Positions 12,043 to 63,408 of a DNA stretch of 64,000 nt are shown here, one piece after another. The notes beneath the pieces were generated by a model, which had not been told where the DNA came from, ran no database searches, and saw only the letters and a list, made by a program, of their open reading frames with translations. The stretch covers positions 337,357-401,356 of the forward strand of contig JBFMHR010000001.1 in NCBI GenBank assembly GCA_040751795.1, written 5' to 3'. The position numbers were made by a program, and so were the translations under genes. Every line of letters starts with the position of its first letter. The stretch's first letter is position 1. This stretch comes from Thermoplasmatota archaeon (GTDB lineage Archaea; Thermoplasmatota; Thermoplasmata; UBA10834).

Positions 12043-12720
12043 ATGAGGGCGGAGCAGGCATGGGGCGCGTTCACGCTCGTCTTCGCGCTCGCAACCACCG
12101 CGGTCGCCGCGACCCTCTTCAGCCTGGGCCACGACCCGTACCTCGCGGCGTCGACGGCCGCGGTGGCGGTGATGGTCTACCTCTACGTCGTGTACAAGAG
12201 GTACCACATCGAGCTCGTGACGGAGGGGGACATAGCCCTCTTCACCGACCCGGACGACCTCGGGATACTCTGCGACATATACGGCCTCGGGAGCACCGGG
12301 AAGCCGGTGGTGGACAGGCAGAGGCTGAGGGGGTTCGTGCGGGCCCACCCCGACAGCGCCTTCGTGTGGGTCGCCCCGCGCCCCGTCAGCTCGGTCGGCT
12401 CCGCCCTCGCGATGCCCCAACAGCCGGCGGAGGAGGAGATGACGGTGCCGGCGATGATGAAGAAGCTCCTCTCCGACGAACCGTCCGAGGCCTCCCTGAC
12501 CGGCCCGCTCTTCGGAGGGGTGGAGAGGTCGAAGGCGAGGCTGGCGGCGCTTACCAGGTGCCCCGTGTGCGACTCCCCGACAGGGAGGTCCGGGGGGATA
12601 TGCCTCAGGTGCGGCGCCGACCTGGAGTTCTACTCGGTCCTCGCCGGGTCCAGGGTCGGGAGGAGGCTCATATCGCGGAAGACGGGGGCGAGGGTGCGGA
12701 AGCTTAGATATCCGAGGTAG
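12043..12720 (+). CDS. hypothetical membrane protein with C-terminal zinc ribbon
   Basis: Two N-terminal TM helices and CPVCDSPTGRSGGICLRCG. Confidence 0.5.
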   Translation: MRAEQAWGAFTLVFALATTAVAATLFSLGHDPYLAASTAAVAVMVYLYVVYKRYHIELVTEGDIALFTDPDDLGILCDIYGLGSTGKPVVDRQRLRGFVRAHPDSAFVWVAPRPVSSVGSALAMPQQPAEEEMTVPAMMKKLLSDEPSEASLTGPLFGGVERSKARLAALTRCPVCDSPTGRSGGICLRCGADLEFYSVLAGSRVGRRLISRKTGARVRKLRYPR

Positions 12721-17614: not shown

Positions 17615-18067
17615 TCAGAACGTCATGATCACGCCGAATATCACCATGAGCGATATGAGGGGGATGATGACGCCCACGACCACGCCTATTATGAGGCATG
17701 TCCTCCCGACGCGCTTGTAGTCGGGCTCCGGCTTCATCATGAATATGATCCCGATGACGATGCCCGCGAGGGGGACCAGCACGGAGAGCACGTACAGCAG
17801 TATGCGCATCGTGTCGCTCATGGTCTCCGGCCGCATCGCCTGCTGGGTGGACCACCTGAAGTCGTGCCCGCAGTACGGGCAAACGTAGGCATCGAACGGG
17901 ATCGTGCGCCCGCACGATGTGCAGAACCTCGGCCCGGAGGCGGGGGGCGGCGCCTGGGCGGGGATGCCCTTCCAGCCCGGCTCGGCCCTCGGGAGCTCCC
18001 TGGAGCAGCTGCTGCAGTAGTACGAGTAGTCGAGGTTCTCCGACCCACAGTTAGGGCACTTGACCAT
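17615..18067 (-). CDS. double zinc-ribbon membrane protein
   Basis: MVKCPNCGSENLDYSYYCSSCSRE plus FCTSCGRTIPFDAYVCPYCGHDF, then two C-terminal TM helices. True start is M41 of the ORF. Confidence 0.6.
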   Translation of the reverse strand: MVKCPNCGSENLDYSYYCSSCSRELPRAEPGWKGIPAQAPPPASGPRFCTSCGRTIPFDAYVCPYCGHDFRWSTQQAMRPETMSDTMRILLYVLSVLVPLAGIVIGIIFMMKPEPDYKRVGRTCLIIGVVVGVIIPLISLMVIFGVIMTF

Positions 18068-18758: not shown

Positions 18759-19268
18759 ATGCCCTCCGCCGACGACGTGCGCCGCATGACGGAGAAGGCC
18801 GTCTTCGCGGCGGGCTGCTTCTGGGGCGTCGAGGCGTCGTTCATGAGGGTCAGGGGCGTCGTCTCCACCAGGGTGGGCTACACCGGGGGGAGGACGCGGG
18901 ACCCGACCTACGAGGACGTGTGCACCGACACAACCGGCCACGCCGAGGCGGTCGAGGTCGAGTTCGACCCCGCGGTCGTCTCGTACGGGCAGCTCCTGGA
19001 CGTGTTCTGGGGCATCCACGACCCGACCACCCTGAACAGGCAGGGCCCCGACAGGGGGACCCAGTACCGCTCGGCAATATTCCACATGTCGGAGCAGCAG
19101 AGGACCGAGGCGGAGGCTTCCAGGGACCGGCTCCAGGCGTCGGGGAGGCTGGGCAGGGCGAAGGCGGTCACGGAGATCGTCCCTGCCGGCACCTTCTACG
19201 AGGCCGAGGGGTACCACCAGAGGTACTTCGAGAAGCGCGGGGGCGGCGGCTGCAGGCTCTGCCGCTGA
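18759..19268 (+). CDS. msrA: peptide methionine sulfoxide reductase MsrA
   Basis: GCFWG active-site motif and full-length similarity. Confidence 0.9.
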
Positions 19269-21381: not shown

Positions 21382-23532
21382 TCAGCCCGACCTGGGGAGG
21401 AGCATGTTGAAGACGCACCCCTTGGACGGGTCCCTGGGCACTATGTCCGAGACCCACATCTTCCCGGAGTAGCGGTCCACTATGCTCTTGGCGGCGGCGA
21501 GGCCTATCCCGAAGCCGCCCGTGAGCTCCGAGCGCGAGCGCTTGGTCATCCTGAGCACCTCCCGCTTGAGGGCGTCCGGGACGGACCTGCCCGGGTCCTC
21601 CACCCTGACGAGCCACATGTCCCTCCGGCCCTCCTTCTGCTCCTCCGCAGAGACGGACATCCTGGTCTCCGGCCTCTTGGACGACCTCGACGCCGTCACG
21701 AAGAGGTTGACGAAGGCGTCCTTGAGCAGGGGGTCCGCGGTGACGAGGACCGGGCCCTGGGGGAGCGTCACGGTCACCTCTATCGGCCGGCCGGGGCTCC
21801 TGGCCCGCGCCTCGGCCACCGCCCCGTCCAGCACCTGGCGGAGGTCCGTCCTGGCGAGCTGGGGCAGGGCGTTCTCCCTCAGCCTGGCGAGGGTGCGGAC
21901 CGTGTCGACCAGGTAGACTATGTTGTCCACCTGGGAGTAGGCCTTCTCGACGGCCTGGGCGACCTCCGGGTCGAGGGTCTTCATCGCCCTGAGGGACTCG
22001 ATGTAGGCCATCACCGGGGTGGTGTAGTTCGCTATGTCGTGGGTGAGGAGGTCCATGTGCAGCTGCACCTGGTCCCTGGTGCTCGACACCTCGCCCAGCA
22101 GCCGGGCGTTCTCGACGGCCACGGCCGCGTGGTTTGCGAACATCGTGGCGACCTCCAGGTCCTCCTTCGTGAACACGTCCGGGGGGTACTTGAGGAGCTC
22201 CACGACCCCCAGCACCTCCTTCTTGCCCAGAATGGGCACCGCGAGCATCCGCGAGTGCGTCGCCGGCGTGCCGGGGATGTAGGAGCCCCGCCCGTCCTCC
22301 TCGGTGTCGAGGATTATCTCGGCCCTCTTCGTCCTGGCGACGTGGCCGACGTACCCCTCCTCCGCGGGGAAGTCCCTGTCCCCCATGACCTCGGAGGCGT
22401 AGGGGCCCGTGGCGTAGACCGGGTTCCCCACCTTCCTCGGCCAGTCGAACATGTAGAAGGCGAGCTCGTTGCACGGGATGAGCTCGGCCATCTTCTCCGA
22501 CACGATCCTGTAGATCTCGGAGCTCTCGATCTCCTTCTGGAGGTCCGCGGCCGTCTCTATGAGGGCGGTCTGCGCCCTCGACCTTATGCTGAGCTTCTCG
22601 AAGAGCTCGACGTTCTCCATGATCCTGACTATGTCCGCCCCGAAGTCCTCCGCGATGCTGACCTCGTCAGGGGTGAAGGGCGTCGGGCCGGAGGTGTCGC
22701 CTATGAACATGACCCCCAGGCGGGCGTCGCCCCTCAGGAGCGGCACGACCATGCAGTGGTCGAAGGACATCTGGCCCAGGATCTTCCTCTTCTGCCCGGC
22801 CGACCACGCGGGCGAGATGCACGTCCTCGGGGAGAGGTGCTCGAGCGCCTCCGCGGCCAGCGGGAACGAGTTCAGGAACATCCTGGAGTCCCTCGATATG
22901 GCCACCCCCTTCGCGGAGCAGCCTATGCACATGAGCTCCCCGGTGTCGGGGAGGTACCTGAAGACGGAGACGAAGTCGGCGTCGAAGTAGTCCATGGCGT
23001 TCCTGCAGAACATGGCGAAGGACTGCTCGAGCTCCGACCTGTCCCCGGGGCTGCACGAGAGGCACTTGAGCAGGATCGCCTGCATCTGGAGGTGCTCCTC
23101 CATGAGGAGGGCGATCTCCTCTATGCCCGCGTCCACGGCGAATGACGCCACCCTCCTGGCGCCGGTGGTGTTGGCGTCCGGGACCCTCTCCTGGACGAAG
23201 TCCACGAGTATCCGCCTCAGGATGAGCTGGTTGGCGATGACCCTGCTGAGGTCCATGGTCCTGAGGTGCTCGGACCTGATGACGCTCCGGAGGACCTCCC
23301 TGTTCTTCCTCGACGATGGGTCCTCCACGGAGTCCATGAGCGCGAGCAGGTAGGTCCTGAGCCTCTCCGCCCTCACCTGCGGGGCGGCGACCGACTCCGA
23401 CACGCGCGCGAACGGGACCCTGCCGACCTCGGCGGCCCACCGCTCGACGATGGCCGGCGCCTCGTCCCTGATGAGCCTGATGACCTTCGAGTCCGCGGGC
23501 CCGTTGACCACGGGCCCACGGGATGGATGCAC
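21382..23532 (-). CDS. sensor histidine kinase with GAF domains
   Basis: H-box LTHDIANYTTP and HATPase_c motifs (GGFGIGLAAAKSIV). Two GAF-like regions lie upstream. Confidence 0.85.
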   Translation of the reverse strand: MHPSRGPVVNGPADSKVIRLIRDEAPAIVERWAAEVGRVPFARVSESVAAPQVRAERLRTYLLALMDSVEDPSSRKNREVLRSVIRSEHLRTMDLSRVIANQLILRRILVDFVQERVPDANTTGARRVASFAVDAGIEEIALLMEEHLQMQAILLKCLSCSPGDRSELEQSFAMFCRNAMDYFDADFVSVFRYLPDTGELMCIGCSAKGVAISRDSRMFLNSFPLAAEALEHLSPRTCISPAWSAGQKRKILGQMSFDHCMVVPLLRGDARLGVMFIGDTSGPTPFTPDEVSIAEDFGADIVRIMENVELFEKLSIRSRAQTALIETAADLQKEIESSEIYRIVSEKMAELIPCNELAFYMFDWPRKVGNPVYATGPYASEVMGDRDFPAEEGYVGHVARTKRAEIILDTEEDGRGSYIPGTPATHSRMLAVPILGKKEVLGVVELLKYPPDVFTKEDLEVATMFANHAAVAVENARLLGEVSSTRDQVQLHMDLLTHDIANYTTPVMAYIESLRAMKTLDPEVAQAVEKAYSQVDNIVYLVDTVRTLARLRENALPQLARTDLRQVLDGAVAEARARSPGRPIEVTVTLPQGPVLVTADPLLKDAFVNLFVTASRSSKRPETRMSVSAEEQKEGRRDMWLVRVEDPGRSVPDALKREVLRMTKRSRSELTGGFGIGLAAAKSIVDRYSGKMWVSDIVPRDPSKGCVFNMLLPRSG

Positions 23533-24851: not shown

Positions 24852-26102
24852 GTGCACGCCACGCCATACGAGGCGGGGGGCATGCGAGCGCGCACGGGGA
24901 GTTATCGAGAGGGCACTCATGGCCCCCTGGATGACATCGAAGGGGGAATAGGATTGGCACGGAGATCGATCGGACTAGTCGCAGCCCTGCTGGTGGCGAT
25001 GCCGTCGCTGCTGCTGGCTGCGCCAGCTGGTGCGGAGATCGTGCCGGACATGTGGACCGTCATGGTGTACATGGACGGCGACAACAACCTCGAGGCCGCG
25101 ACTGTGACGGACCTCGGGGAGATGATGGTGGCTGGGTCCACGGCGGACGTCAACATCGTGGTCCTCGTCGACACGCTCGACGGGCCCGCGGAGCTCGTCT
25201 ACGTGAACCAGGGGAGCACGACCACTGTCGCGGCCTGGGGCGAGGTCAACATGGGTGACCCCGCGACGCTGCAGGCGTTCATCGCCCAGTCGGCCGCGCT
25301 GTACCCGGCGGAGAACTACGTGCTCGACTTCTGGGACCACGGCGGGGGCATCATGGGCATATGCTGGGACGACACGTCCGGCTCGGACAAGCTGACCATG
25401 ACCGAGGTCAGGTCCGCGGTCGTCGGCGCGGGGGTCGTGATGGACGTCGTGATGTTCGACGCGTGCGACATGGCCCAGGCGGAGGTGGCCCACCTGTTCC
25501 AGGGCTACGCGGACTACGCCGTCTTCAGCCAGGAGACGATGTGGGGGCAGGGGTTCCCGTACGACGCCATACTCACGAGGCTCGTCGCGGAGCCGACCAT
25601 GACGGACAGGGCCTACGCGCTGATCGTCGGCGAGGAGTTCACAGTGTTCTACGACGCACTGGGCTGGAACCTGTGCACCATCAGCGTCTACGACATGTCG
25701 TACCTGACGGCGGTGTCGGGGTCCGTGGGCACGCTCGCGAGCGGGATGAGGGCGACGATGAGCACGGCCTACAAGACCTACAAGGCCTGCAGGCTGAGCG
25801 CGGAGGAGGCCGCCGGGGCGGTCGACCTGAAGGGCTTCGCGCAGCTCGTCGCGGCGAACTCGAAGGTGAGCACGTCCGTGAGGAGCGCCGCGGCCGCGGT
25901 GGTGACCGCCGTCGCCGGGGCCATCATCTACGAGTGGCACTCGGACGACTGCGACGGGATGAACGGGCTCGGGATATGGTTCCCGGTGAGCTCCGTGTCC
26001 TACTACTGGAGCCCGACCGTGGAGACCATGTACAGGGCGATGCCGTTCGACGCGGCGACGCACTGGGCGGACCTCCTCGACTCCTACTACGCGAAGGCGT
26101 GA
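24852..26102 (+). CDS. secreted clostripain-like cysteine peptidase (family C11), copy 1
   Basis: Signal peptide (...LLVAMPSLLLAAPAGA), MDGDNNLE, catalytic WDHGGG and MFDACDM motifs. The start may be an internal TTG/ATG (24882-24951). Confidence 0.8.
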   Translation: MHATPYEAGGMRARTGSYREGTHGPLDDIEGGIGLARRSIGLVAALLVAMPSLLLAAPAGAEIVPDMWTVMVYMDGDNNLEAATVTDLGEMMVAGSTADVNIVVLVDTLDGPAELVYVNQGSTTTVAAWGEVNMGDPATLQAFIAQSAALYPAENYVLDFWDHGGGIMGICWDDTSGSDKLTMTEVRSAVVGAGVVMDVVMFDACDMAQAEVAHLFQGYADYAVFSQETMWGQGFPYDAILTRLVAEPTMTDRAYALIVGEEFTVFYDALGWNLCTISVYDMSYLTAVSGSVGTLASGMRATMSTAYKTYKACRLSAEEAAGAVDLKGFAQLVAANSKVSTSVRSAAAAVVTAVAGAIIYEWHSDDCDGMNGLGIWFPVSSVSYYWSPTVETMYRAMPFDAATHWADLLDSYYAKA

Positions 26103-26135
26103 GGGGGAGCCGGAGGAGCCCGTGAAACGCCAAAC

Positions 26136-26172
26136 CCGGGGAGGCACGACGCCTCCCCGGAGTTGTTTCTTC
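26136..26172 (+). terminator. 10-bp perfect hairpin (CCGGGGAGGC-acgac-GCCTCCCCGG) followed by a T-rich tract
   Basis: Directly downstream of the C11 peptidase copy 1 stop. Confidence 0.35.
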
Positions 26173-26329
26173 CCCCCGGCCGCGAGCGCGGAAGACGGGG
26201 GGTCAGTGGCGCTGTGCCTCGGCAACGGTTAATACCCTGTTATATGATACTGACCGAGCCCTGCGGGCGCCCCGGAGGGGCCTCTGCCGGGCGAGCGTAT
26301 AGGGGGGCTTCTGACTGAGGAGAACGTAC

Positions 26330-27463
26330 ATGGGCCTTGCGGCCCTGCTGATGATACTGCCCGCGCTGGCGCTGTCCGCGCCGGCGAAGGCGGTCGACGT
26401 GCCGAACGAATGGACCGTGATGGTATACATGGACGGGGACAACAACGTCGAGTCCTACGCCCTGGCCGACCTGGCCGAGCTCGAGTTCGTGGGGTCCAGC
26501 ACCGACGTCGACTTCGTCGTGCTGCTAGACACCTACGGCGAGGGGGCGAACCTCCTCCACGTCGAGTACCCGGCCTCGACCGTCGTCGAGCCCTGGGGCG
26601 AGCCCGACATGGGCGACCCTGCCACGCTCACGCGCTTCATTGACACGGCCGAGGCAGCCTACCCGGCCGAGAGGTACGCGCTCGTGATGTGGGACCACGG
26701 CGGCGGCATACGCGGACTCTGCTGGGACGACGACAACGGCGGCGACTACCTGACCATGGCCGAGTACAGGCAGGGGCTTGTCGGCGGGGGCGTGTCCTTC
26801 GACCTGATCGTGCTCAACGCCTGCGTCATGGCCACGGCCGAGATAGCCCACCAGATGGTGGACTACGCGGACTACGTGGTCTTCAGCCAGGAGAACATGT
26901 ACGCGGTCGGGTTCCCGTACGACGACGTCGCTGGGAGCCTCGTCCAGACGCCCACGATGGACGCGAGGGACTTCGCCCAGATGATGGCCGACCACTACGT
27001 CGTGCAGTTCCAGGCCCTCGGGTGGGACGGCGTCACCATAAGCATCTACGACATGGCCCGGGTGGACGCGGTGGCCTCCGCGGTCAACGCCTTCGGCAGC
27101 GCCCAGAGGGCCACGATGGCGCAGTACTACATGGAGTACAAGACGCTGAGGAAGCTGACGCCCGCGCCCAACAACGCGGCGGACCTCATCGGCTACGCGA
27201 CCAAGGTCAGGGACAGCGCCGTCATCACCGACCCGGCGGTCAAGGCCTCCGCGCAGGCCGTGATCGACGCCGCCTCCGCGGCCATCGTGTTCGAGTGGGG
27301 CTCGGAGGACGTCGCGGACGAGACCGGCCTCGGGATCTGGTTCCCGACGAAGTCGGTCAAGTACTACTGGGGCGACTCGTACGAGGCCCTGTACAGGGGC
27401 CTCGTCTTCGACGGGGCCGCCCACTGGGCGGACTTCCTGGACACCTACTACAACAAGGGGTGA
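26330..27463 (+). CDS. secreted clostripain-like cysteine peptidase (family C11), copy 2
   Basis: Same motifs (MDGDNNVE, WDHGGG, LNACVM). Paralog of copy 1. Confidence 0.8.
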   Translation: MGLAALLMILPALALSAPAKAVDVPNEWTVMVYMDGDNNVESYALADLAELEFVGSSTDVDFVVLLDTYGEGANLLHVEYPASTVVEPWGEPDMGDPATLTRFIDTAEAAYPAERYALVMWDHGGGIRGLCWDDDNGGDYLTMAEYRQGLVGGGVSFDLIVLNACVMATAEIAHQMVDYADYVVFSQENMYAVGFPYDDVAGSLVQTPTMDARDFAQMMADHYVVQFQALGWDGVTISIYDMARVDAVASAVNAFGSAQRATMAQYYMEYKTLRKLTPAPNNAADLIGYATKVRDSAVITDPAVKASAQAVIDAASAAIVFEWGSEDVADETGLGIWFPTKSVKYYWGDSYEALYRGLVFDGAAHWADFLDTYYNKG

Positions 27464-27523: not shown

Positions 27524-29019
<1,496 letters not shown>

Positions 29020-29136
29020 CCGGGCCTGTGCGGGGAGGGGGCGCACCCGCGCCTGTTCGGGCGAGGCATGATTACCCCGGTCATGCGATTTCCCCCCCAG
29101 GCATAGGAGGGGTTCGTTCTGGCTGACACAAAAGAT

Positions 29137-29889
29137 GTGAGGTTCAAGAAGCTGAAGGATTTCAACATGGTGATGGGCTTTCTGCACCTGTTCCAGGGCG
29201 CGCTGATGCTGGTGCTGTGGCCGCCCTACGACGCCTCGGTGTACACCCGCTTCTTCGGGGTGGAGGACGGGGCCCCCGTGGTCGTCGAGGACCTGCTTGT
29301 GAAGATCCCGTTCGCGCCGATGGTGGCGTCGTTCCTGTTCGTCTCCGCCATAGCTCACTTCTCGCTGTCGACCTTCGCCAACAGGTGGTACGTCGAGAAC
29401 CTGAGCAAGGGGATGAACCCGGCCAGGTGGCTCGAGTACTCGATAAGCTCGTCGATCATGATCGTGCTGATCGCGTTCCTCGTCGGCATAGACGAGCTGG
29501 CGAGCCTGCTGCTGATCTTCACCCTGAACGCCACCATGAACCTGTTCGGCTGGATGATGGAGCTGCACAACCAGACCACGAAGAGGACCGACTGGACCGC
29601 CTACATATTCGGGTGCATCGCGGGCTTCGTCCCGTGGCTCGTCCTGGGCATCTACTTCTTCGGGGCGATACTGCAGAGCACCGACTCGGTGCCGACCTTC
29701 GTGTACGCGATATTCTTCATCCTGGCGGCGTTCTTCAACGTGTTCGCCATCAACATGGTGCTGCAGTACCGCGCCAAGGGGAGGTGGGCCGACTACCTCT
29801 ACGGCGAGAGGGTGTACATCATCCTCAGCCTGACGGCGAAGTCCGCCCTCGCGTGGCTGGTCTTCGGCGGGACATACAGGTTCACGTGA
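29137..29889 (+). CDS. heliorhodopsin
   Basis: 250 aa, 7 TM. Near-identical blocks to characterised heliorhodopsins: FNMVMGFLHLFQ, RWLEYSISSSIMIVLIA, NATMNLFGW, FGCIAGFVPW, YGERVYIILSLTAKSALAW (Schiff-base Lys). Confidence 0.85.
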   Translation: MRFKKLKDFNMVMGFLHLFQGALMLVLWPPYDASVYTRFFGVEDGAPVVVEDLLVKIPFAPMVASFLFVSAIAHFSLSTFANRWYVENLSKGMNPARWLEYSISSSIMIVLIAFLVGIDELASLLLIFTLNATMNLFGWMMELHNQTTKRTDWTAYIFGCIAGFVPWLVLGIYFFGAILQSTDSVPTFVYAIFFILAAFFNVFAINMVLQYRAKGRWADYLYGERVYIILSLTAKSALAWLVFGGTYRFT

Positions 29890-29944: not shown

Positions 29945-30730
29945 TTGGACGCCCACGCCGCTGCAGGTGCGATGGCCTGGACGCAGAAGGAGATGGACCG
30001 GCAGCTGTCGAGGCAGTCCATGTGGCTCAGGGAGTCCTGGATGTGGCTCCTGGAGCAGAGGGTACTCAAGGGTTGGAGGGGCCACCACAGGCCGACGGCC
30101 CTGGACGTGGGCTGCGGGCCCGGACACGTGATGGAGGCGCTGTGGGAGCTCCTGGACGTCCACGGCCTGGACATCGACCCCGCCGCCGTCGAGGAGGCCA
30201 AGGGGAGGGGCCTGGACGCGAGGGAGGGGGACGCGCACTCGTTGCCGTATGCGGACGGCTCATTCGACATCGTGTACTGCTCGTTCCTGCTACTCTGGGT
30301 GAAGGGACCGGCCAAGGCCCTGTCCGAGATGGCCCGCGTCTCCAGGGACTGGGTCGTGTGCCTTGCCGAGCCGGACCTCGGGGCCAGGATCGACTACCCC
30401 GAGGAGCTCGCGCCCGTCGCCAGGATGGTCGCGGACGGTGTCAGGGCGGAGGGCGGGGACCCCCTCATGGGGCGGAAGCTGAGGTCGGTGTTCCGGTCGG
30501 CTGGCCTGGACGCCGACATAGGGGTGCACCCCGGAGTCTGGGGGGTCGAGAAGCTGAGGGAGGAGTCCGAGGCGGAGTGGAGGTACCTTGAGCTCACGGC
30601 CGGCGACGCGGGGAGTTCCGAGGCGCTCGCCCGGCTGAGGCCCGTGTGGGACCGCGCGGTCCGCGACGGGACCCTATTCCAGCACAGCCCTGTGTTCTAC
30701 GCGTTCGCAAGGAAGCCGTCACATGGATGA
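29945..30730 (+). CDS. class I SAM-dependent methyltransferase
   Basis: LDVGCGPG motif I. The start may be M10 (29972). Confidence 0.75.
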   Translation: MDAHAAAGAMAWTQKEMDRQLSRQSMWLRESWMWLLEQRVLKGWRGHHRPTALDVGCGPGHVMEALWELLDVHGLDIDPAAVEEAKGRGLDAREGDAHSLPYADGSFDIVYCSFLLLWVKGPAKALSEMARVSRDWVVCLAEPDLGARIDYPEELAPVARMVADGVRAEGGDPLMGRKLRSVFRSAGLDADIGVHPGVWGVEKLREESEAEWRYLELTAGDAGSSEALARLRPVWDRAVRDGTLFQHSPVFYAFARKPSHG

Positions 30731-32071
30731 GTGCCTGTCGAGGCACACGTAGTCCCCGTGCTGGGCCGACAGCGGGCACCCGCCCCCGCAGAGCTGCAGC
30801 ATCTCGCACTTCCCGCACCTCTCGTCGACGTACTCCCTCCTCCTGATCCGCTCGCAGAGGGGGTGGGACCAGATCTTTTTCCAGTCGTCCCTCAGGACGT
30901 TGCCCAGGGGCTCGTAGTAGCTCTGGCACGGGATGACCGTCCCGTCAGGCTCGACGGCCATGTTGATGGAGCACGCGGTGCACTGCTTGATGCCCAGGCC
31001 CATGTTGACGGGGTTGAGCTCGCAGTAGGGCGTCGGCGAGTACCAGATGAGCCTCGTCCCTGTCTCGGATGCGACGTCCTTCAGGTCCTCGAGGAGGTCG
31101 GCCAGCTCCTGGAAGGTGACGCCCTCCGCCTCCGTCCCCTTGCCCGAGCGGATGACGCCGTTGAACGCGATGTTCTTCACGCCCAGCCCTGCGACGAACC
31201 TCATCGTATCGACGATCTGCGCGTGGTTGGACCTCATGATCGTCGTGTTGGTGCTGACGTACATGTCCTCGGCTACCGCGGCCTTCAGACCTTCCATGGT
31301 CTCCTTCCACGCCCCCTGCGCCCCGGCGAGCCGGTCGTGCGTGGCGGGGTCGTGCGAGAGCACGGTGACCTGGACGTGGTCCAGGCCCTTGGAAACGAGG
31401 GAACGGAGGTAGCCCGGCCTGCCCAGGGTCCTGCCGTTGGTGACGAGGCCCGTGACCTGCCCGTGGTGCTCCGAGCGCTCCACGAGCTCCTCGAGGCCTT
31501 CGTACAGGGTCGGCTCCCCGCCCGTGAACACGATGTGCGGCACCCCGACATCCCAGAGCCTGTCTATGATCGACTTCCACTCGGCGACGGAGAGCTCGGC
31601 CTTCTCCTTCGTCGCGTTGTAGCAGTGGCCGCACTCGTTCTGGCACCTGTATGTCAGTGCGAGGTCCATCCTGTAGGGGGAGGGCACGTTGTCCGCGCCC
31701 ACCGTCCGGGAGTCGGGGCCCATGACGTCCATGACCGTCTCCTCGCCGTGGACGAACCTCACGAGCCTCTCCCTCGTGGCTGCGAAGTCCTCCCTGGCCT
31801 CCGCCTTCTTCAGGTGCTTGTACCTGCGCCTCATGTACCTGTAGGCCGCGCCGGCGTCCTTGCCCTCCAGGATGCAGCGCACGTAGTCGAGGGCGGTGCC
31901 GTTCATGAACACGAGCTTCGACGCGTCGACCATCAGGACGCCCCTGCTCTCGGAGTCGACCCTGATGTGGAACCTGTGGTGCGCAAGGTCCCCGGACCCG
32001 TCGAACCTGTACGTCCCGGCCTGCAGCCCCAGATCCTCAGGGGACTGCGCCAGGAGCCTGATCCGCCTCAT
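30719..32071 (-). CDS. radical SAM enzyme with C-terminal SPASM domain and ~110-aa N-terminal extension
   Basis: CQNECGHCYN (CxxxCxxC) and a C-terminal Cys cluster (CTACS...CQSY...CGKCEMLQLCGGGCP). Start is ATG at 32071, overlapping the TGA of the upstream gene (ATGA). The ORF track extends it to 32113. Confidence 0.85.
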   Translation of the reverse strand: MRRIRLLAQSPEDLGLQAGTYRFDGSGDLAHHRFHIRVDSESRGVLMVDASKLVFMNGTALDYVRCILEGKDAGAAYRYMRRRYKHLKKAEAREDFAATRERLVRFVHGEETVMDVMGPDSRTVGADNVPSPYRMDLALTYRCQNECGHCYNATKEKAELSVAEWKSIIDRLWDVGVPHIVFTGGEPTLYEGLEELVERSEHHGQVTGLVTNGRTLGRPGYLRSLVSKGLDHVQVTVLSHDPATHDRLAGAQGAWKETMEGLKAAVAEDMYVSTNTTIMRSNHAQIVDTMRFVAGLGVKNIAFNGVIRSGKGTEAEGVTFQELADLLEDLKDVASETGTRLIWYSPTPYCELNPVNMGLGIKQCTACSINMAVEPDGTVIPCQSYYEPLGNVLRDDWKKIWSHPLCERIRRREYVDERCGKCEMLQLCGGGCPLSAQHGDYVCLDRHSSM

Positions 32072-33738
32072 CTGCCTCCCCCCGCGCAGGCGCACGCGCA
32101 GGCGCATGCGCACGCACAGCCGCCCCCTCCTCCGCCGAAGCCCCCCCTGCCCTTGAGGTAGGAGCCGCCGAGGGCTGAGGACCCGACTGGTATCGGGTTG
32201 GTGCTGCCGGTGACCTCGTTGGCGAGGCCTTTGAAGTTGGTGACGACGTTGTTGCTGGCGTTACGGACGCTCGACGCGTAGCTCGAAGCGAGGCTCTGTG
32301 GCGAAGCGGTGCCCGAGGACGCGGCCCTCCCGAGCGCGTAGTACCTCACCGGCACGTGGACGTATGGGAGCCCCGCGAAGTGGTCCTGCATGCGCCTGTC
32401 GTAGCGCCTGTCCAGCATCATCCACTCGTGCCTGTCCGACAGGGACGAGGCGAACTCCTCCGGGGTGCCCGCCTCCTTCACCTGGCGCCACGCGGCCCTG
32501 CAGATCTCCTCGTAGTAGGTCTTGGTGTGGTCGAAGTCGAAGCCCTCGAGCTTCTTCTCGGTGGCCTTGACGAGCGCGACGAGCGCGTCCCTCAGCTCGT
32601 CGCGGTCCACCCTGCCGTCGAGGTGCACGGCCTGGAGGTACGCGTTCTCGTAGGCGTGCTCCCCCTTCGCAGTGAGCTTGGTGATCGTCATTGGCTTCGC
32701 CTCCGAGTCGATCCTGACCATCCCCTTCTTGGCGAGCCCGAAGAGGATCATGGTGGCGACCATCTCGAGCGGCCTCTCGAGCACCACGGCGGCCTCCACC
32801 GCGGTGAGGTCCCGCCTCGGTCCGGCGCCGACGGTGCCCAGGGAGGGCTTGAAGTAGTCCTTCCTCCTCGCCGCCTTCGACGCCCTGTCTATGACGATCC
32901 CGAGGGTGAATATCCCGCCCATGACCACCACGGGGGCGCAGAGGCAGAGGAGGTCCGCGAACGACATGAGGAGGTCCGAGACCCTGTCCCAGACGGTGAA
33001 CTCCACGTATGAATCGACGTACTCGGAGGGGAACGCCGCCCCGAAGTCGTAGGTCCCCGAGGCCACGTCGGTCGGGTCCACGCCCAGCGCGCTCCACGTC
33101 GCGACCAGGTACCCGAGGTCCACGCCTATGCTGTCCCAGGGCTGCCCCTCGAGGTACAGCGCCTCGGAGGCGTCCGTGAACCCCTCCGGGAAGAACACGC
33201 GGACGGTGAGGTTCCCCACGAAGCCCGTCTGGAAGGAGGGCTCGAACCAGGTCGGCCTCATCGCGATGCCCACGGTGCCATCGGCCAGCTCGTTCTCGTA
33301 GACCATGTGCGGGTTGTTGATGTGGAAGTCGAGGGTGAACGTCGCCCCGCCCGTCTCGCTCACGAGGTCCATGACCTGGGACGTGAACTCCACCGCGACG
33401 CCGACGTCGATGTACGGCGACGCGCGGATCTGCGATGGGGCGTACTCAGTCCCCCCTATCGTGATGACCGCCTCCGCGGTGTCGAGGTCGTACCTGTCGT
33501 TGGGGAGGCCTATGTCCACGCCGTCGAGGTAGCCGTAGTTGGTGAAGAGGAACGAGTAGTCTATGTCTATGCTGCCGTCCTTCAGTATGTGTACGTCCAG
33601 GAACTCGTGCTGCACGAGGAAGCTGTACTCCTGGGCCGATGCGGACGCGGCCTGGATGCCGCTGGACCACGCGGAGGCCGCCATCAGGAGGAGGGCCGCG
33701 GAGGCCACGGAAGCGATCAGCGAGCGACGCCTGTTCAA
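32068..33738 (-). CDS. membrane protein with C-terminal Gly-rich (Cys-Ala)x6 tail; candidate rSAM substrate
   Basis: 556 aa: signal peptide, a ~250-aa exported domain, TM helix LLCLCAPVVVMGGIFTLGIVI, and a ~280-aa cytoplasmic domain ending GRGGFGGGGGGCACACACACACAGGGR. Protein-like composition throughout. Confidence 0.65.
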   Translation of the reverse strand: MNRRRSLIASVASAALLLMAASAWSSGIQAASASAQEYSFLVQHEFLDVHILKDGSIDIDYSFLFTNYGYLDGVDIGLPNDRYDLDTAEAVITIGGTEYAPSQIRASPYIDVGVAVEFTSQVMDLVSETGGATFTLDFHINNPHMVYENELADGTVGIAMRPTWFEPSFQTGFVGNLTVRVFFPEGFTDASEALYLEGQPWDSIGVDLGYLVATWSALGVDPTDVASGTYDFGAAFPSEYVDSYVEFTVWDRVSDLLMSFADLLCLCAPVVVMGGIFTLGIVIDRASKAARRKDYFKPSLGTVGAGPRRDLTAVEAAVVLERPLEMVATMILFGLAKKGMVRIDSEAKPMTITKLTAKGEHAYENAYLQAVHLDGRVDRDELRDALVALVKATEKKLEGFDFDHTKTYYEEICRAAWRQVKEAGTPEEFASSLSDRHEWMMLDRRYDRRMQDHFAGLPYVHVPVRYYALGRAASSGTASPQSLASSYASSVRNASNNVVTNFKGLANEVTGSTNPIPVGSSALGGSYLKGRGGFGGGGGGCACACACACACAGGGR

Positions 33739-33745
33739 GGATGGA

Positions 33746-34141
33746 TCACCACTTCGGGGCTTCCTGGAGGGCGAAGACGACGCCGCAGTACGGGCACTTG
33801 GCCATCAGGCCGCCCTGGACCGCGGTGACGTCCTTGTCGGCTATGGGGGCGCCGCACGACCTGCACACCATGTCCTTGGGGACCATGGTGCCCGAGCCCG
33901 ACATGGAGACGTTGAAGGTCTGCGAGATGAGCTTCGGTTTGGCCGCCTCGATCTTCTCGACCCTGTAGACGTAGTACATCAGCCCGGCGCCGATGAGGAC
34001 CATCGCGAGGCCCGCGACGGCGTTCTCGACGCTCCACGCGATTATGAATATCGCGCCCAGCAGGATGAGGCATATCCCCGCGAATGTGACTAAGGCCCCC
34101 ACTACCTTGTTCATGGCCGTCCCGACGGGGATGATTCCCAT
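33746..34141 (-). CDS. membrane protein with C-terminal zinc ribbon
   Basis: Two TM helices, then CRSCGAPI...CPYCG. Confidence 0.55.
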   Translation of the reverse strand: MGIIPVGTAMNKVVGALVTFAGICLILLGAIFIIAWSVENAVAGLAMVLIGAGLMYYVYRVEKIEAAKPKLISQTFNVSMSGSGTMVPKDMVCRSCGAPIADKDVTAVQGGLMAKCPYCGVVFALQEAPKW

Positions 34142-34197: not shown

Positions 34198-34716
34198 TCA
34201 CCTCGGGGCTTCCTGGGCTGACCTGAACTGGTCCGACGACTTGGCGATCAGTATGAGCCCGGGTATCCCGAAGAAGAACGCCAGCCCGAATATCGAGCAA
34301 GCGGCACCGAGGACCGCGAGCGGGAACGCCCTCTTCGCAAGCGCCATGAGGCCGCCCATTATGCCGAGGGCGGCGCAGGAGTAGAGCACGACCACCAGGG
34401 CCAGGGCCTCACCCTCGAGGTCCCCGCCGGCCGAGACCATGATGGACGTCAGGACTATGGAGAACACGCTCGCGACGATTGTGAGCACCCCGCCGACGAC
34501 CAGCTGGTCCTTCGACTGCTCCTTCGGCCTCGCCCTGAAGTCGTGGCCGCAGTACTGGCACACGTTCACGTCCCAAGAGATGACCCTGCCGCAGGAGACG
34601 CAGTGCCTCATCCTCGACTCGCCCGGCGTGACCGCCGGCGCCTCGGCCGGCCTGCCGCACATGTTGCAGAACCTCATCCCGGCGGGGTTGTCCGCCCCGC
34701 ACTGAGCGCACTTCAT
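34198..34716 (-). CDS. double zinc-ribbon membrane protein
   Basis: MKCAQCGADNPAGMRFCNMCG plus CVSCGRVISWDVNVCQYCGHDF, then 3-4 TM helices. True start is at 34716; the ORF track extends it to 35721. Confidence 0.6.
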   Translation of the reverse strand: MKCAQCGADNPAGMRFCNMCGRPAEAPAVTPGESRMRHCVSCGRVISWDVNVCQYCGHDFRARPKEQSKDQLVVGGVLTIVASVFSIVLTSIMVSAGGDLEGEALALVVVLYSCAALGIMGGLMALAKRAFPLAVLGAACSIFGLAFFFGIPGLILIAKSSDQFRSAQEAPR

Positions 34717-50939: not shown

Positions 50940-52268
50940 TCAAGGTTTGAGGCGGAAGCCGCAGCCCCTGCAGAACAGGTAGTCGCCAGAGACGGCGCTG
51001 CCGCACTTGGGGCAGTTCGCGGACTGCCAGCCCTCCGGGGGAGGGGGGAGGTCCTCGGCCTGCGCCGGGGCAGCGGGGGCCTGCCACGCGGGCGCCTGCG
51101 GCACGGAGGGGGCCTGGGCGGTCATGAGGTTCTGCGGGAACCCGGGCGCGCCCCTGAGCTCCATCGGCTTCCTAAGCGGCGTCCCGTTCACCGCCAGGAC
51201 GCGCTTGGCCTCGGGGACCAGCGTCACGGTCGCGGGGACGCCCTCTGCCACGAGGCCCTTCGCCTCGCCGGCCCTGTTGAAGTGGAACGCGCCGAAGTCC
51301 CAGGCGCCGGACCTGAGGGACGGGACGTGGCGCCACTCGACCGCGGCGCCCCTGTCGAGGGCGCGCGCGAGCGAGGACGATAAGCTCCTCGCCTGGAAGG
51401 CTACCCCGAGGCTCATGGCCCCGAAGAAGAGGGGCATGATCAGCGCCACGGGCTCCTCCACGAAGTTGATCATGACCGCCATGGCCATGGACATGACGGC
51501 GAGGCCGACGGCGTTAACCTTCGGTGACCGGGTGATGCCCTTGAGGGCCTCGCGCTCGGCGGCGCTCAGGGGCCTCTCGTTGGGGTAGTGCAGCCCGACC
51601 CCGCCGACAGGGGTGCCCACGCCCGGGCCCGGGGGCTGCGGGTACGGGCCCGTGGTCCACTGCTGGGACGGCACGGGCTGCTGGGCGTAGGGGGCGCTCG
51701 TGGTGCCCGTCTGGAACCCCTTCGGCACCTTCGGGGGCGAGACGGCAACGACTATCGCGACGATGGCGAGGGTGATGCCTATGGCAGATACGATCGGGTT
51801 GATGCCCCCGACGGCGAAGAGGCCGCCCCTCTGGAGGTCGAAGTAGCCGTTGATCGTGACGCCGACGTTGAGGTACGAGCCGCTGCCGTACATGAGGTCG
51901 CCGTCGACGGTGAGGGCGTAGGTGGCCTGGCAGTAGCTGACGCCGTCCCAGCCCCACTGGAGCGTCATCATGAAGGTGGAGCCGTCGAAGGCCCCCCAGA
52001 CGGCGTAGCTCTGGGAGCCGACCGTCAGGGTGCCGGAGACGTCGGTGCCCGAGGAGGAGACGTCGAGGTCCGCGTCGAATGAGTCGGTGATCGTGCCCCC
52101 GTACGGGCCGAGGTAGGTCTGGGTGTAGCCCTCGCCGGAGATCCTGGAGGTCCAGCTGCCGTCGACCGATGCGGCGGAGGCGTTCTCGCTAGCTGCCGAT
52201 ATCGTGAATGCCGTGGTCCCTGTCACCAGGAGTGAGAGGACCAGGGCCCGTGCCCATGTTGCCTTCAT
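50940..52268 (-). CDS. membrane protein with exported N-terminal domain, Pro/Gln-rich linker and C-terminal zinc ribbon
   Basis: Signal peptide, TM helices, and CPKCGSAVSGDYLFCRGCG at the C-terminus. Confidence 0.55.
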   Translation of the reverse strand: MKATWARALVLSLLVTGTTAFTISAASENASAASVDGSWTSRISGEGYTQTYLGPYGGTITDSFDADLDVSSSGTDVSGTLTVGSQSYAVWGAFDGSTFMMTLQWGWDGVSYCQATYALTVDGDLMYGSGSYLNVGVTINGYFDLQRGGLFAVGGINPIVSAIGITLAIVAIVVAVSPPKVPKGFQTGTTSAPYAQQPVPSQQWTTGPYPQPPGPGVGTPVGGVGLHYPNERPLSAAEREALKGITRSPKVNAVGLAVMSMAMAVMINFVEEPVALIMPLFFGAMSLGVAFQARSLSSSLARALDRGAAVEWRHVPSLRSGAWDFGAFHFNRAGEAKGLVAEGVPATVTLVPEAKRVLAVNGTPLRKPMELRGAPGFPQNLMTAQAPSVPQAPAWQAPAAPAQAEDLPPPPEGWQSANCPKCGSAVSGDYLFCRGCGFRLKP

Positions 52269-52412: not shown

Positions 52413-53072
52413 CTAGACCCGCTCGCCCCTATGGTACCCGCACCGCGGGCACATGAGGGAGCCGCGGGGCCATATCATGCCGCACCTGGGACAGGCCACG
52501 CCGAAGCCGCAGCCCTCGCAGAAGCACGTCCCCCGGGCCATCGTCCTGCCGCAGTTGGGGCACTTCTCCGCCGCGGGCGCCCTCGGCTGCGGATCACCCT
52601 CGACGTAGCCCCTCCCTCCGCAGCCGGGGCACACCATGGAGCCCGAGGGGCCGGGGAGGACGCCGAGGCCGCGGCAGGCGGGGCACTTCTCGGTGCCCAG
52701 GCACCTGGGGCACTTGCCGGTGCCCCCGCAGAAGGGGCAGGCGCTCAAGGAGCCCCCTTTGCCCTTCCCCTTGCAGGCGTAGCAGTAGCCGTTGACGCAG
52801 TAGGAGACGGAGCCGTAGGCGAGGATGGATGTGAAGTCGTTGTGGCCGTGTGCGTTTGAGGAGACGCTCCATGTGCACTTTCCCGAGCCGCCGCAGGCTT
52901 TGCAGACGTCGATCCTCCCGAAGCCGTCGCAGACCTTGCACTCGGTCCTGCCGCGGCCTATTATGACCTGGGTGCCGCAGTACATGCAGTGGGCCTTGTC
53001 GAGGTCGGCGGGGAACCTGAGGCTGGAGCCGCACTTGGGGCAGACGGCTGCTATGAGCTCGACCTCGGCCAT
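52413..53072 (-). CDS. cysteine-rich protein with zinc ribbons and DnaJ-type CxxCxGxG repeats
   Basis: Start MAEVELIAAVCPKCG. About 13 CxxC pairs, several as CxxCxGxGK (CKVCDGFG, CKACGGSG, CPFCGGTG, CPGCGGRG). Confidence 0.55.
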   Translation of the reverse strand: MAEVELIAAVCPKCGSSLRFPADLDKAHCMYCGTQVIIGRGRTECKVCDGFGRIDVCKACGGSGKCTWSVSSNAHGHNDFTSILAYGSVSYCVNGYCYACKGKGKGGSLSACPFCGGTGKCPRCLGTEKCPACRGLGVLPGPSGSMVCPGCGGRGYVEGDPQPRAPAAEKCPNCGRTMARGTCFCEGCGFGVACPRCGMIWPRGSLMCPRCGYHRGERV

Positions 53073-53225
53073 CCCCTTCACCCTCAGTTGGGGCGGGATT
53101 GGCGGGACGGTATTATATGGTTTCACGGGGGAGTCCACCCTGCCCTGACGGGAGGGGTGAGGAGAAGGAGGCCGGACGGAAGGGTTATTTATACGGCGAC
53201 AATCATGGGCCCTCGCAACCATCGG

Positions 53226-53310
53226 GCAGGGATAGCCAAGCCTGGCCAACGGCGATAGATTCAGGGTCTATTCGCGAAGGCGTCCGCCGGTTCAAATCCG
53301 GCTCCCTGCA
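53226..53310 (+). tRNA. tRNA-Leu(CAG): tRNA-Leu (anticodon CAG), class II with long variable arm, CCA not encoded
   Basis: Hand-folded: acceptor GCAGGGA/TCCCTGC, D arm GCC-AAGCCTGGCCAAC-GGC, anticodon stem ATAGA/TCTAT with loop TTCAGGG, variable stem CGC-GAAG-GCG, T arm GCCGG-TTCAAAT-CCGGC. Confidence 0.9.
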
Positions 53311-53370
53311 CATCGCGACATCTGGCTATTTTCAAATCAGAGGGTTTTTGTCTGCTGGCACCCCCCCTGG

Positions 53371-54570
53371 CTACGGCTTTTCCGCGAACGCTTCCTCGAG
53401 CTCCCGGAAGGCGTCTTCGGACCGTATCCGCGCGTAGTAGAGTTCGGTCGTTCTCGTCGTTCTGTGCCTCAGCGCCTTGGACACAGACTCGATCGACGCG
53501 CCCCGGTCCTTGCACATCTGCCCGAAGGTCGCTCGCAGATATTGCACCCGGAAGGGTATCCCCGCGTGCTTCTGCGCATCATCCTTCATGCTGCCCCACA
53601 TGCCGTCGGTCCAATAATCTACTCGGCCGTCCCTGTAGATCCGGGGCACAAGGGGCTCACATTCGCCCACGCCGTTCTCAGTCAGGTACTTCGTCCTCGC
53701 CTTGAGGAAGTCGAGCACCGTCTGTCGGGCGGGCTGCAGGATCGGCGCTGTGCCTGCGGAGGCATAGCGCGTCTCTCCCTTCGGGTGGCTCACGAGGACT
53801 CTCCACTTGGAGATGTCTATGTCCTGCAGTCGGGCCTTGCGCAGCTCAGACCGTCTGAGCCCTGTGTACGCGTACATCGCGACGGCGAAGCGGGCCACCT
53901 CGCCGTCCCAGCCGGGCATGTTCGCCAACTTGGCCCGTAGTTCCTCCACAGTGGTCTGCTCCAGGGTCCTGATCTCCGGGGAGACCTTCTGAGGGAACCG
54001 GACGTAGTGTAGCGCTCGCATCCGGTTCATGACCGGGTTCTCGCATATCAACAGCATCTCGGCCAGGAATGCAAGGTAGTTCGCCTGCGTTGCTGGCCTC
54101 AAGCCGATTCCGGTCTTGGTCTTGCGGTCCTTCATCCACTGGAGGAATGCTTCGATGTCGGCCTGAGTCATCTTCCTCGGGTTGATGGTCGACACCTTGC
54201 CCTTCTTCCTGAGCGCCTTGAACGCGTCTCCGATGACCTTCAGGCCCCTCGTGATGGTCCTGTGGGTCGATGCCGCGTAATAGGGCCGTACGGCCTCTAG
54301 GAAGGCGTTGGCGCAGGGGTTGAACGGGTTGCGCCCACCCACAGACCTCGCCCTCCTCGGACGGCCTCTTCTCGTTCTGCGCGGGGGGTTTTGCTCCGAG
54401 CGGTTATTGGTTCGGCTGCTCTTGCTGTTGGCATCCGGCACCGCTCCGGAGGCGAGTTGTCTACCACCATGTGGTAGTATCCTCTCCTCAAGAACGGTAT
54501 TCCTCTCCGGAGCCGTTAATGCTTCGCCCCGGGCGACTCCCATGTGGGAGTCGGACACCTTCTCCTCCAT
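53371..54570 (-). CDS. tyrosine-type site-specific integrase
   Basis: C-terminal catalytic region with R...LRHRTTRTTELYYAR (HxxxR...Y) and an N-terminal SAM-like/core-binding domain. Confidence 0.85.
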   Translation of the reverse strand: MEEKVSDSHMGVARGEALTAPERNTVLEERILPHGGRQLASGAVPDANSKSSRTNNRSEQNPPRRTRRGRPRRARSVGGRNPFNPCANAFLEAVRPYYAASTHRTITRGLKVIGDAFKALRKKGKVSTINPRKMTQADIEAFLQWMKDRKTKTGIGLRPATQANYLAFLAEMLLICENPVMNRMRALHYVRFPQKVSPEIRTLEQTTVEELRAKLANMPGWDGEVARFAVAMYAYTGLRRSELRKARLQDIDISKWRVLVSHPKGETRYASAGTAPILQPARQTVLDFLKARTKYLTENGVGECEPLVPRIYRDGRVDYWTDGMWGSMKDDAQKHAGIPFRVQYLRATFGQMCKDRGASIESVSKALRHRTTRTTELYYARIRSEDAFRELEEAFAEKP

Positions 54571-54636
54571 CTCTCAACCCCCCCGCCGCAAAGTGGGGCC
54601 GACCTCGGTCGGCCCGGTTTTCTATGGTTTTGCGGC

Positions 54637-54816
54637 TTACTCTTCGTCCTCTTCCTCCCGATCGTCGCTCTCAGACTCGTCCGAGGAGTAGTACTCCTCG
54701 AGGTAGTCCAGCAGGATGTGCATCGCCAATTCCTGCGTCGTGAGCCCTTGCTCTTTGGCGATGGCGTTCAGCTGTCGAGCCGTCTCCCCTCTTGCCTCAA
54801 TCACCTGGGCATCCAC
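54637..54816 (-). CDS. small acidic-tailed protein (59 aa, possible RHH/excisionase-like regulator)
   Basis: GTG start. Reads MDAQVIEARGETARQLNAIAKEQGLTTQELAMHILLDYLEEYYSSDESESDDREEEDEE. Just upstream of the integrase on the same strand. Confidence 0.3.
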   Translation of the reverse strand: MDAQVIEARGETARQLNAIAKEQGLTTQELAMHILLDYLEEYYSSDESESDDREEEDEE

Positions 54817-54970
54817 TTCTTCACCTCCGCATCAGGTCGGCCGGGAGACCCCCCCCCCAGCCGCCTAATGTCTACCATTGTATACATTATACTGACTCAT
54901 AAATCTTTTCATGCCATGCATATAGGCCACAACATTGATATCCGGCTGTAGACATTCAACCACGATACCC

Positions 54971-55672: not shown

Positions 55673-55833
55673 TGTTGTTGACTGGGCGTGCCATCTGCTT
55701 CATCGAGACTGATACCGAGCAGGGCATGTTGATGAGACTCTCCTTGACGGAGACCCGCTTCCGAGGTGTATTCTTGGTGAGATGAGAATCATATTCTGAC
55801 GTAGCCGTTTGAGTCCGATTCGCTGATATCTTC

Positions 55834-56361: not shown

Positions 56362-56463
56362 ACATGTTCTAAGACAGGTCCACCGTCGTCGAGAATATCT
56401 GCTATTTTCACGCTGCCCGGGCAACCCTCATATAAGTGAATAGCCGATTCTCGAGATGGTGAA

Positions 56464-56712: not shown

Positions 56713-56755
56713 AATCGTGGACTGAAGAAGTCTAATATGCCCTCATTGCATTGGG

Positions 56756-58912: not shown

Positions 58913-59091
58913 CCGTCAAGCGATGATGGATTGACTGCATGATTCGTTCTCCGTCATAACACTGTTGTTTTACTCACTGAAATCAATATATCAGACTAGG
59001 CGATACGGGAGATGGTCGAACATGAAGACCGGCGGAGTGGTCTGGTCACCATACCTGCTACGCGGTCCGTGGGAGCCAATGAAGGGGGAAT

Positions 59092-63404: not shown

Positions 63405-63408
63405 TGGG

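Follow-up and report, generated by a model that had tools for sequence, protein, structure and literature searches.

A TaHeR-like heliorhodopsin of an uncultured Thermoplasmata lineage, most probably transcribed from its own promoter and not partnered by the enzymes encoded around it

The DNA analysed here (the window) is a stretch of 64,000 nucleotides from a Thermoplasmatota archaeon (GenBank assembly GCA_040751795.1, contig JBFMHR010000001.1, positions 337,357 to 401,356 of the forward strand), and the subject of this analysis is a heliorhodopsin (HeR) gene encoded near its middle. Judged by its sequence, this open reading frame (ORF) is a real, full-length archaeal HeR of the kind represented by TaHeR of Thermoplasmatales archaeon SG8-52-1, and as such is an ordinary addition to a known family. 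Taken as a whole, the evidence makes it very probable that the protein is functional, that its gene is a transcription unit in its own right, and that the enzymes encoded beside it are neighbours and not partners.

29137..29889, + strand: HeR ORF, 250 amino acids from a GTG start, TGA stop at 29887-29889

The third-position GC content of this ORF is 0.95, like that of the other real genes of the 66% GC window. The encoded protein matches the Pfam family PF18761 (Heliorhodopsin) with an E-value of 2.6e-94 and 315.5 bits (cutoff 26.7) over profile positions 1–241 of 242, and the NCBIfam equivalog NF038020 (‘heliorhodopsin HeR’) with 325 bits (cutoff 100), and a search of the PDB returns six matches, all of them heliorhodopsins, the best being TaHeR (6is6, E 1.3e-71) and HeR-48C12 (6su3, E 4.3e-54). 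These scores bear out the initial annotation, in which the letters of the sequence had been read as a 250-residue heliorhodopsin with the Schiff-base context SLTAKSALAW, a motif that is found at residues 231–240. Identity amounts to 54% with TaHeR over 242 aligned residues and to 45% with 48C12. There are 7317 homologs at E<1e-20, the closest of which are proteins of Thermoplasmata metagenome-assembled genomes (MAGs) that reach at most 89% identity in the collections searched; the closest HeR loci are titled as Thermoplasmata or Thermoplasmatota MAGs and come from sediments, wetlands, soil and a hot spring. Aligned codon by codon with five orthologs, the gene shows no gaps and a ratio of non-synonymous to synonymous substitution rates (dN/dS) of 0.22–0.27, a value near 0.25 that places the HeR under purifying selection. 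The window carries the archaeal markers RadA, the archaeal CCA-adding enzyme, fibrillarin, arch_KAE1 and archaeal RecJ, from which we infer a monoderm (single-membrane) host, as the family requires, the envelope type itself being deduced from these markers.

Functional residues were mapped residue by residue through HMMER alignments to TaHeR and 48C12, with the structurally important residues of 48C12 taken as listed by Kovalev et al. (2020, PMC7049168). The positions of the Schiff-base lysine, its counterion and the histidine pair are as follows.

29839..29841, + strand: codon AAG for K235, Schiff-base lysine on helix G (48C12 K241, TaHeR K238)
29434..29436, + strand: codon GAG for E100, Schiff-base counterion on helix C (48C12 E107, TaHeR E108)
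29185..29187, + strand: codon CAC for H17 of the histidine pair (48C12 H23)
29356-29358, + strand: H74, partner of H17 in the histidine pair (48C12 H80, TaHeR H82)

All four are invariant in a 38-sequence alignment (A1), and 29 of the 31 structurally important residues of 48C12 are identical in the window HeR. The two positions that are not, N135 (48C12 I142) and M207 (48C12 Q213), both match TaHeR. The identical residues comprise the serines that hold the counterion (S70, S104 and S231, equivalent to Ser76, Ser111 and Ser237 of 48C12), the Schiff-base cavity (N10, Y85, N94, R97, Y101 and E224; 48C12 N16, Y92, N101, R104, Y108 and E230), the cluster formed by E142, Q210, Y220 and W98 (48C12 E149, Q216, Y226 and W105), the proline of the helix E bulge (P166; 48C12 P172), and W240, S236 and Q20. 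The residues of the lateral fenestration, as listed in bioRxiv 10.1101/2025.11.27.691015, are also present in the TaHeR pattern (Y156, C160, G163, F200, N201 and A204). The mapping shows that the sequence carries every element of the predicted retinal site and of the predicted internal proton-accepting cavity. The lysine, counterion and histidine pair, which the initial annotation had singled out for alignment to 48C12 and TaHeR, are all there, and with K235 and E100 in place a degenerate homolog that has lost the Schiff-base lysine or the counterion is ruled out.

An AlphaFold2 model built on 38 homologs is of moderate confidence (predicted local distance difference test 75, predicted template modelling score 0.70), and displays seven long transmembrane helices, a short helix in the B–C loop (81–90) and a long A–B beta-hairpin with strands at 32–43 and 46–58. 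The ten best PDB chains in a Foldseek search with this model are all heliorhodopsins, with template modelling (TM) scores of 0.80–0.86 and TaHeR (7u55/6is6) at 0.86; type 1 rhodopsins appear only after these, with E-values of ∼1e-3 and above. The N-terminus and the B–C, D–E and F–G loops together contain 13 lysines and arginines as opposed to 3 on the other side, a charge distribution that fits a cytoplasmic N-terminus and thereby the inverted topology of HeRs.

The closest characterized relative is TaHeR (PDB 6IS6, 7U55, 7CLJ), which has the same network of lysine, glutamate, histidine pair, serine and arginine. Residues specific to TaHeR are shared as well, namely N135 (the asparagine of the TaHeR MNL motif), M207 and, at the fenestration, Y156, and the TaHeR host likewise belongs to the class Thermoplasmata, with no retinal pathway seen nearby in either. 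The window HeR differs from TaHeR in an E–F loop that is five residues longer (FFGAILQSTDS versus IP-----LISAES) and close in length to that of 48C12, in a divergent sequence of the A–B hairpin, in having Thr233 instead of valine two residues before the lysine, and in belonging to a different, high-GC lineage with another genomic context. HeR-48C12, from a freshwater actinobacterial fosmid (PDB 6SU3, 6UH3), has the same fold (TM score ∼0.80), but its host is bacterial and not archaeal, and I142 and Q213 are replaced in the window HeR by N135 and M207. The latter is one of two natural colour-tuning positions of HeRs (48C12 Q213 and A240; Kim et al., PMC7807009), and its replacement predicts a slightly blue-shifted absorption maximum (PMC7807009). 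The window HeR has Met207 and Ala234 at these two positions, a Met/Ala combination seen in HeRs that absorb below ∼545 nm (PMC7807009). A proton-transporting viral HeR (subfamily 2, e.g. V2HeR3), which is without the fenestration/carotenoid-site motif, was considered and rejected, as the best relatives are archaeal HeRs of the TaHeR kind and Y156, C160, G163, F200 and A204 are present.

The Znf-HeRs of Thermoplasmatales, which carry an N-terminal zinc-ribbon fusion (Bulzu et al., 2021), likewise belong to Thermoplasmata, and stand-alone membrane zinc-ribbon proteins are encoded near the window HeR. The window HeR itself is unfused, because its reading frame is closed by a TAG at 29104-29106, 11 codons upstream of the GTG. 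Genes for proteins that join zinc-ribbon and double-zinc-ribbon motifs to hydrophobic, predicted membrane segments are located at 12043-12720, 17615-18052, 27524-27928, 33746-34141, 34198-34710, 50940-52268 and 52413-53249, and that at 34198-34710 is the conserved convergent neighbour that directly follows the HeR in relatives without the cassette described below. The idea that this downstream zinc-ribbon membrane protein of the relatives is one half of a split Znf-HeR carries no weight, with at least seven such proteins scattered over the window. Elsewhere, a CPKCKTDG-containing segment is encoded just upstream of two Thermoplasmatales HeRs, probably in frame (L022, 4830-4960; L025, 5300-5430; L numbers denote the compared loci), and from their sequences these two appear to be zinc-ribbon-fused Znf-HeRs of Bulzu et al. 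(2021).

By analogy with TaHeR and 48C12, the protein would bind all-trans retinal at K235 with E100 as counterion, and Met207 and Ala234 would set its absorption in the green, near 540 nm. Light would isomerize the retinal, the Schiff-base proton would pass into the internal cavity of histidine, glutamate and water without net transport, and a long-lived state would then signal light to some partner. With no carotenoid or retinal pathway gene nearby, external retinal that enters by way of the fenestration is the probable source of the chromophore. Pfam scans of the ∼70 ORFs of the window found no BCD/Blh, RPE65, SQS_PSY, Amino_oxidase/CrtI or lycopene cyclase gene, in agreement with the initial annotation, which had noted that no blh or crt gene was evident there. 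A missing nearby retinal pathway is not new: the host of TaHeR is reported to be without means of making retinal, and the fenestration has been proposed as the entry for exogenous retinal (PMC9385722); such a supply was already postulated for that host.

The region upstream of the HeR was compared with that of its relatives as part of a wider comparison of genomic context, in which the proteins of the window were searched by tblastn against 80 HeR loci, one genome per species. The features between the upstream gene and the HeR are the following.

28003..29019, + strand: Kae1/TsaD, KEOPS threonylcarbamoyladenosine (t6A) synthase (TIGR03722 arch_KAE1, 481 bits)
29054..29078, + strand: putative archaeal promoter TGTTCGGGCGAGGCATGATTACCCC, comprising a TTCGGG motif, a purine-rich stretch resembling a B recognition element (BRE) and the TATA-like box ATGATTAC
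29106..29112, + strand: Shine-Dalgarno-like GGAGGGG, 6 nt before CTG 29119 and 24 nt before GTG 29137

The promoter-like block lies ∼60–80 nt before the HeR start codon, inside the 117-bp spacer that follows Kae1, and is kept upstream of the HeR in 16 Thermoplasmata loci. Across these relatives, its elements are the motif TTCGGG/TTCTGG, purine-rich sequence and an A/T-rich box that reads ATTAA, ATTAT or TTTAT; a GGAGG box, whose position is also kept, comes ∼30–40 nt later. The same arrangement precedes the HeR in L054, L008 and L021, where the gene upstream is a different one. Because the block stays with the HeR when the context changes, it is best interpreted as an archaeal BRE/TATA promoter of the HeR itself, which would make the HeR its own transcription unit. 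An Rfam search of the whole window found no RNA element near the HeR, the only hit being a tRNA at 17447.

The HeRs of the relatives are 255–257 residues long and begin with MADxEDVKFKK, their start codon being TTG, GTG or ATG downstream of the GGAGG box. In the window, the position of this start codon reads CTG (29119-29121), although the six in-frame residues ADTKDV that remain there are still homologous; a start at CTG 29119 would give 256 residues and one at GTG 29137 gives 250. The GTG, six codons downstream of the CTG, is found at the same codon in L002, L003, L004 and L081. Three explanations of the CTG are possible: it is itself used as a start, the start has shifted to the downstream GTG, or it reflects a one-base assembly error (TTCTTGG>TTCTGG). 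No functional consequence of the change is expected, because the segment concerned is an unstructured cytoplasmic N-terminus.

Several points weigh against a functional, TaHeR-like HeR that is expressed from its own promoter and senses light. The CTG at the canonical start of the relatives could weaken expression, as could the TATA-like box, which as ATGATTAC is one base (an A) shorter than the ATGATTAAC of the closest relatives. The promoter is a prediction from sequence conservation, and there is no clear oligo-T terminator after Kae1, so that read-through from Kae1 could occur. Retinal binding, the absorption maximum, the photocycle and the lack of pumping are extrapolated from proteins of 45–54% identity, and the negative result for retinal genes covers the 64-kb window alone, with a pathway elsewhere in the genome being possible. 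Finally, a 2025 preprint proposes for HeRs a light-harvesting role with a carotenoid antenna rather than sensing, and the fenestration residues predicted for the window HeR are compatible with such a role. The altered start and the shortened box are also what would favour a degenerate or non-retinal-binding homolog on the way to loss. Against such decay stand the intact ORF with its gapless alignment, the retention of the lysine, counterion, histidine pair and whole cavity network, the low dN/dS, and the in-frame GTG that is shared with relatives; we therefore regard decay as extremely improbable, and an intact and selected HeR as the reading to be carried forward.

The genes around the HeR were considered as candidates for the partner of its predicted signal. 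Kae1, the class I methyltransferase and the convergent radical S-adenosylmethionine (rSAM) gene that the initial annotation had placed beside it are all encoded as described, but its title, which set the HeR between Kae1 and S-adenosylmethionine-dependent enzymes as if this flanking were informative, does not hold up, as the Kae1 adjacency is limited to one clade, the cassette is independent, and the HeR has a promoter-like element of its own. The case for Kae1 would be that the HeR acts as a light-dependent regulator of the adjacent KEOPS tRNA t6A synthase. Precedents exist in HeRs that bind the product of a neighbouring gene and regulate it, such as glutamine synthetase, a photolyase or an ABC transporter (PMC9529153, PMC9769723, PMC11109279). 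Moreover, the pair is kept on the same strand in loci with different genes upstream of Kae1, and Kae1 is here not accompanied by Bud32, to which it is usually fused: of the 535 positions of the Kae1-Bud32 fusion model, its match spans the first 326 only, and no Bud32 is fused or adjacent. Kae1 directly precedes the HeR in the same orientation, separated from it by 92–123 bp, in the window, at 13 genome loci (L001-L007, L009-L013 and L023) and in the closest metagenome contig (L081). These loci, however, belong to a single Thermoplasmata clade and are collinear wherever the fetched sequence extends, in the order pyridine-nucleotide disulfide oxidoreductase (PNDR), GAF kinase, alanine dehydrogenase, Kae1, HeR, zinc-ribbon membrane protein, RecJ, ribosomal protein S15, NUDIX and fibrillarin, the part from alanine dehydrogenase onwards forming a conserved housekeeping block. 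By tblastn, Kae1/TsaD is found within 10 kb in none of the other 65–66 HeR loci, which represent other Thermoplasmata, Methanomassiliicoccales, Chloroflexota, Saccharibacteria and Actinomycetota. In L054, Kae1 and the HeR are parted by a 5.4-kb insertion, and in L008, whose HeR is 76% identical, there is no Kae1 nearby; the promoter-like element between the two genes goes with the HeR. Because the adjacency is confined to one collinear clade, gene order identifies it as inherited synteny, as common descent predicts. In the literature, Kae1 is not among the ten recurrent classes of HeR neighbour of Shim et al. (PMC11109279), nor is it mentioned by Bulzu et al. (PMC8612252). The operon-partnered HeRs, i.e. 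AbHeR with glutamine synthetase, TfHeR with a photolyase and OcHeR with the ABC transporter OmrDE, belong to the same family, and here too a same-strand gene lies immediately upstream; the window HeR differs from them in that Kae1 is of no reported partner class (PMC11109279), the HeR apparently has its own promoter, and the adjacency is that of one clade. Regulation of Kae1 by the HeR is therefore judged very unlikely, and that the pair reflects a physical coupling, through which the HeR modulates the KEOPS t6A modification of tRNA by light, is rated more doubtful still; if true, it would constitute a new class of HeR partner that links light sensing to translation fidelity.

Downstream of the HeR lies a cassette of four genes.

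29972-30730 (alternative start 29945; 29972 probable), + strand: class I methyltransferase (MTase)
30719-32113, − strand: rSAM/SPASM gene, convergent to the MTase with overlapping stops
32068-33738, − strand: 556-residue protein with a CACACACACAGGGR tail
33746-34141, − strand: small 131-residue membrane protein with a CxxC zinc-ribbon

That the HeR works with the downstream MTase and rSAM/SPASM enzyme, in chromophore or cofactor chemistry or as a co-regulated operon, could be argued from the MTase being encoded downstream of the HeR in the same orientation, at a distance of ∼80 bp in the window and 134 bp in L081 (L005 shows this order too), and from the cassette flanking the HeR, whether upstream or downstream of it, in the window, L001, L005, L054 and L081. 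It is downstream of the HeR in the window, L081 and L005 (the sequence of the last ending within the MTase), but in L001 the gene of a 750-residue surface protein parts the HeR from the MTase, and in L054 the cassette, together with a Fic-family gene, is upstream of the HeR, between Kae1 and the HeR promoter. At L004, L006, L007 and L009-L012, the cassette is absent, the zinc-ribbon gene and RecJ being the next genes after the HeR there. Conversely, the same order of small protein, 550-residue protein and rSAM/SPASM gene recurs in L082, L083 and L085, two of these three with the convergent MTase, and none of them has a heliorhodopsin within 8 kb of the cassette; by this recurrence, a joint function is largely refuted. 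The MTase, moreover, is partnered through its convergent orientation and overlapping stop with the rSAM gene rather than with the HeR. Given HeR loci with no cassette, a cassette on the opposite side of the HeR in L054, and cassettes free of HeR at L082, L083 and L085, gene context indicates that the cassette is independent of the HeR, and a functional tie between the two is scarcely credible. Neither Kae1 nor the MTase/rSAM pair recurs beside the HeR in independent lineages across the 80 HeR loci and L081.

The third candidate is a histidine kinase on the other side of Kae1.

21382-23532, − strand: GAF-domain histidine kinase, 716 residues, with three GAF domains and HATPase_c, no HisKA being detected

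Signalling from the HeR to this kinase, 5.6 kb upstream, in response to light-induced oxidative stress would accord with the presence of the GAF/HATPase_c kinase, a pyridine-nucleotide disulfide oxidoreductase and MsrA 5–10 kb upstream of the HeR, and with a kinase 2.4–5.6 kb from the HeR across the relatives of the clade. It would also accord with the report of Bulzu et al. (2021, PMC8612252) that HeRs, in Thermoplasmatota too, are associated at a statistically significant level with histidine kinases and redox proteins, and with the occurrence of MsrA within 6 kb of the HeR in unrelated lineages. The collinearity of the whole clade nevertheless accounts for the proximity of the kinase, which is encoded on the opposite strand with two to five unrelated genes between it and the HeR; no transducer-like or response-regulator gene is adjacent, and in L006-L012 the kinase is only 46–48% identical and perhaps not a strict ortholog. 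Such signalling is thus considered unlikely. An unlinked protein is the leading candidate for the signalling partner, followed by the GAF histidine kinase, then Kae1 and last the cassette enzymes.

Other observations concern the same neighbourhood. MsrA, whose copy in the window is at 18759-19268, lies 0.5–6 kb from the HeR in L046, L052, L053, L074, L075, L016 and L080, which represent Saccharibacteria (where it is directly upstream on the same strand), Thermoplasmatota and Methanomassiliicoccales. This proximity fits the oxidative-stress link of Bulzu et al. (2021, PMC8612252), whose main text does not name MsrA. Two tandem genes of clostripain-family (C11) peptidases with N-terminal hydrophobic segments lie at 24852-27463, between alanine dehydrogenase and Kae1; the pair is present in L003, L004, L023 and L054 and absent in L006-L012, and forms a second variable insertion in the block. 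In L054 (4580-10000), where the cassette and the Fic-family gene stand ahead of the HeR promoter, several genes of the locus (those for alanine dehydrogenase, Kae1, the HeR and the 556-residue protein) are split into frames, which suggests frameshift errors of the assembly. The gap between Kae1 and the MTase of L054 was searched for another copy of the HeR and contains none, holding instead the Fic-family gene, and a displacement of the HeR within that neighbourhood was set aside in favour of the simpler explanation that the cassette lies on the other side of the HeR-plus-promoter unit.

The 556-residue cassette protein has no Pfam or NCBIfam match. Its family has only 112 homologs, in Thermoplasmata, Methanomassiliicoccales, Anaerolineae and Bathyarchaeia, that are otherwise 25–64% identical, and nearly every full-length member ends in a G-rich stretch and the Cys-Ala repeat CACACACACAGGGR, a tail that is almost invariant across the 112 homologs, with the variants CACACACAGCACACAGGGR and, in Bathyarchaeia, CVCACASCACACACVSCACACAHGGAR. 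The rSAM/SPASM gene directly follows that of the 550-residue protein, often with a 4-bp overlap, and because of this arrangement its product probably modifies the Cys-Ala tail. This protein, with its CACACACACAGGGR tail, looks more novel than the HeR.

At the far end of the window, the GC content falls from 0.66 to 0.54 after an integrase gene and stays low to the window end (53226-64000). The features of this low-GC island are listed below.

53226-53311: tRNA-Leu(CAG)
53371-54570, − strand: tyrosine integrase, following the tRNA
56756-58912: C5 DNA methylase
59092-60603: MzaB-like GHKL ATPase (PADLOC, E 5e-86)
60600-63404: MzaC/Z1-domain protein (E 6e-183)

From its gene content and composition, the island is an element integrated at tRNA-Leu that carries an Mza-type defence system; an rRNA operon, considered for this low-GC end, was rejected.

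For the HeR family, the window adds one TaHeR-like member, whose lineage within Thermoplasmata is uncultured and whose best match in the collections searched has 89% identity, and shows that such archaea keep an intact and selected photoreceptor gene with no retinal pathway gene within 64 kb. It also furnishes a useful negative, in that Kae1, the methyltransferase and the rSAM enzyme are not to be taken as functional partners of the HeR, in agreement with the published view that HeRs are without a consistent gene neighbourhood. The promoter-like block that stays with the HeR across contexts may, in turn, provide a handle for finding a shared regulator.

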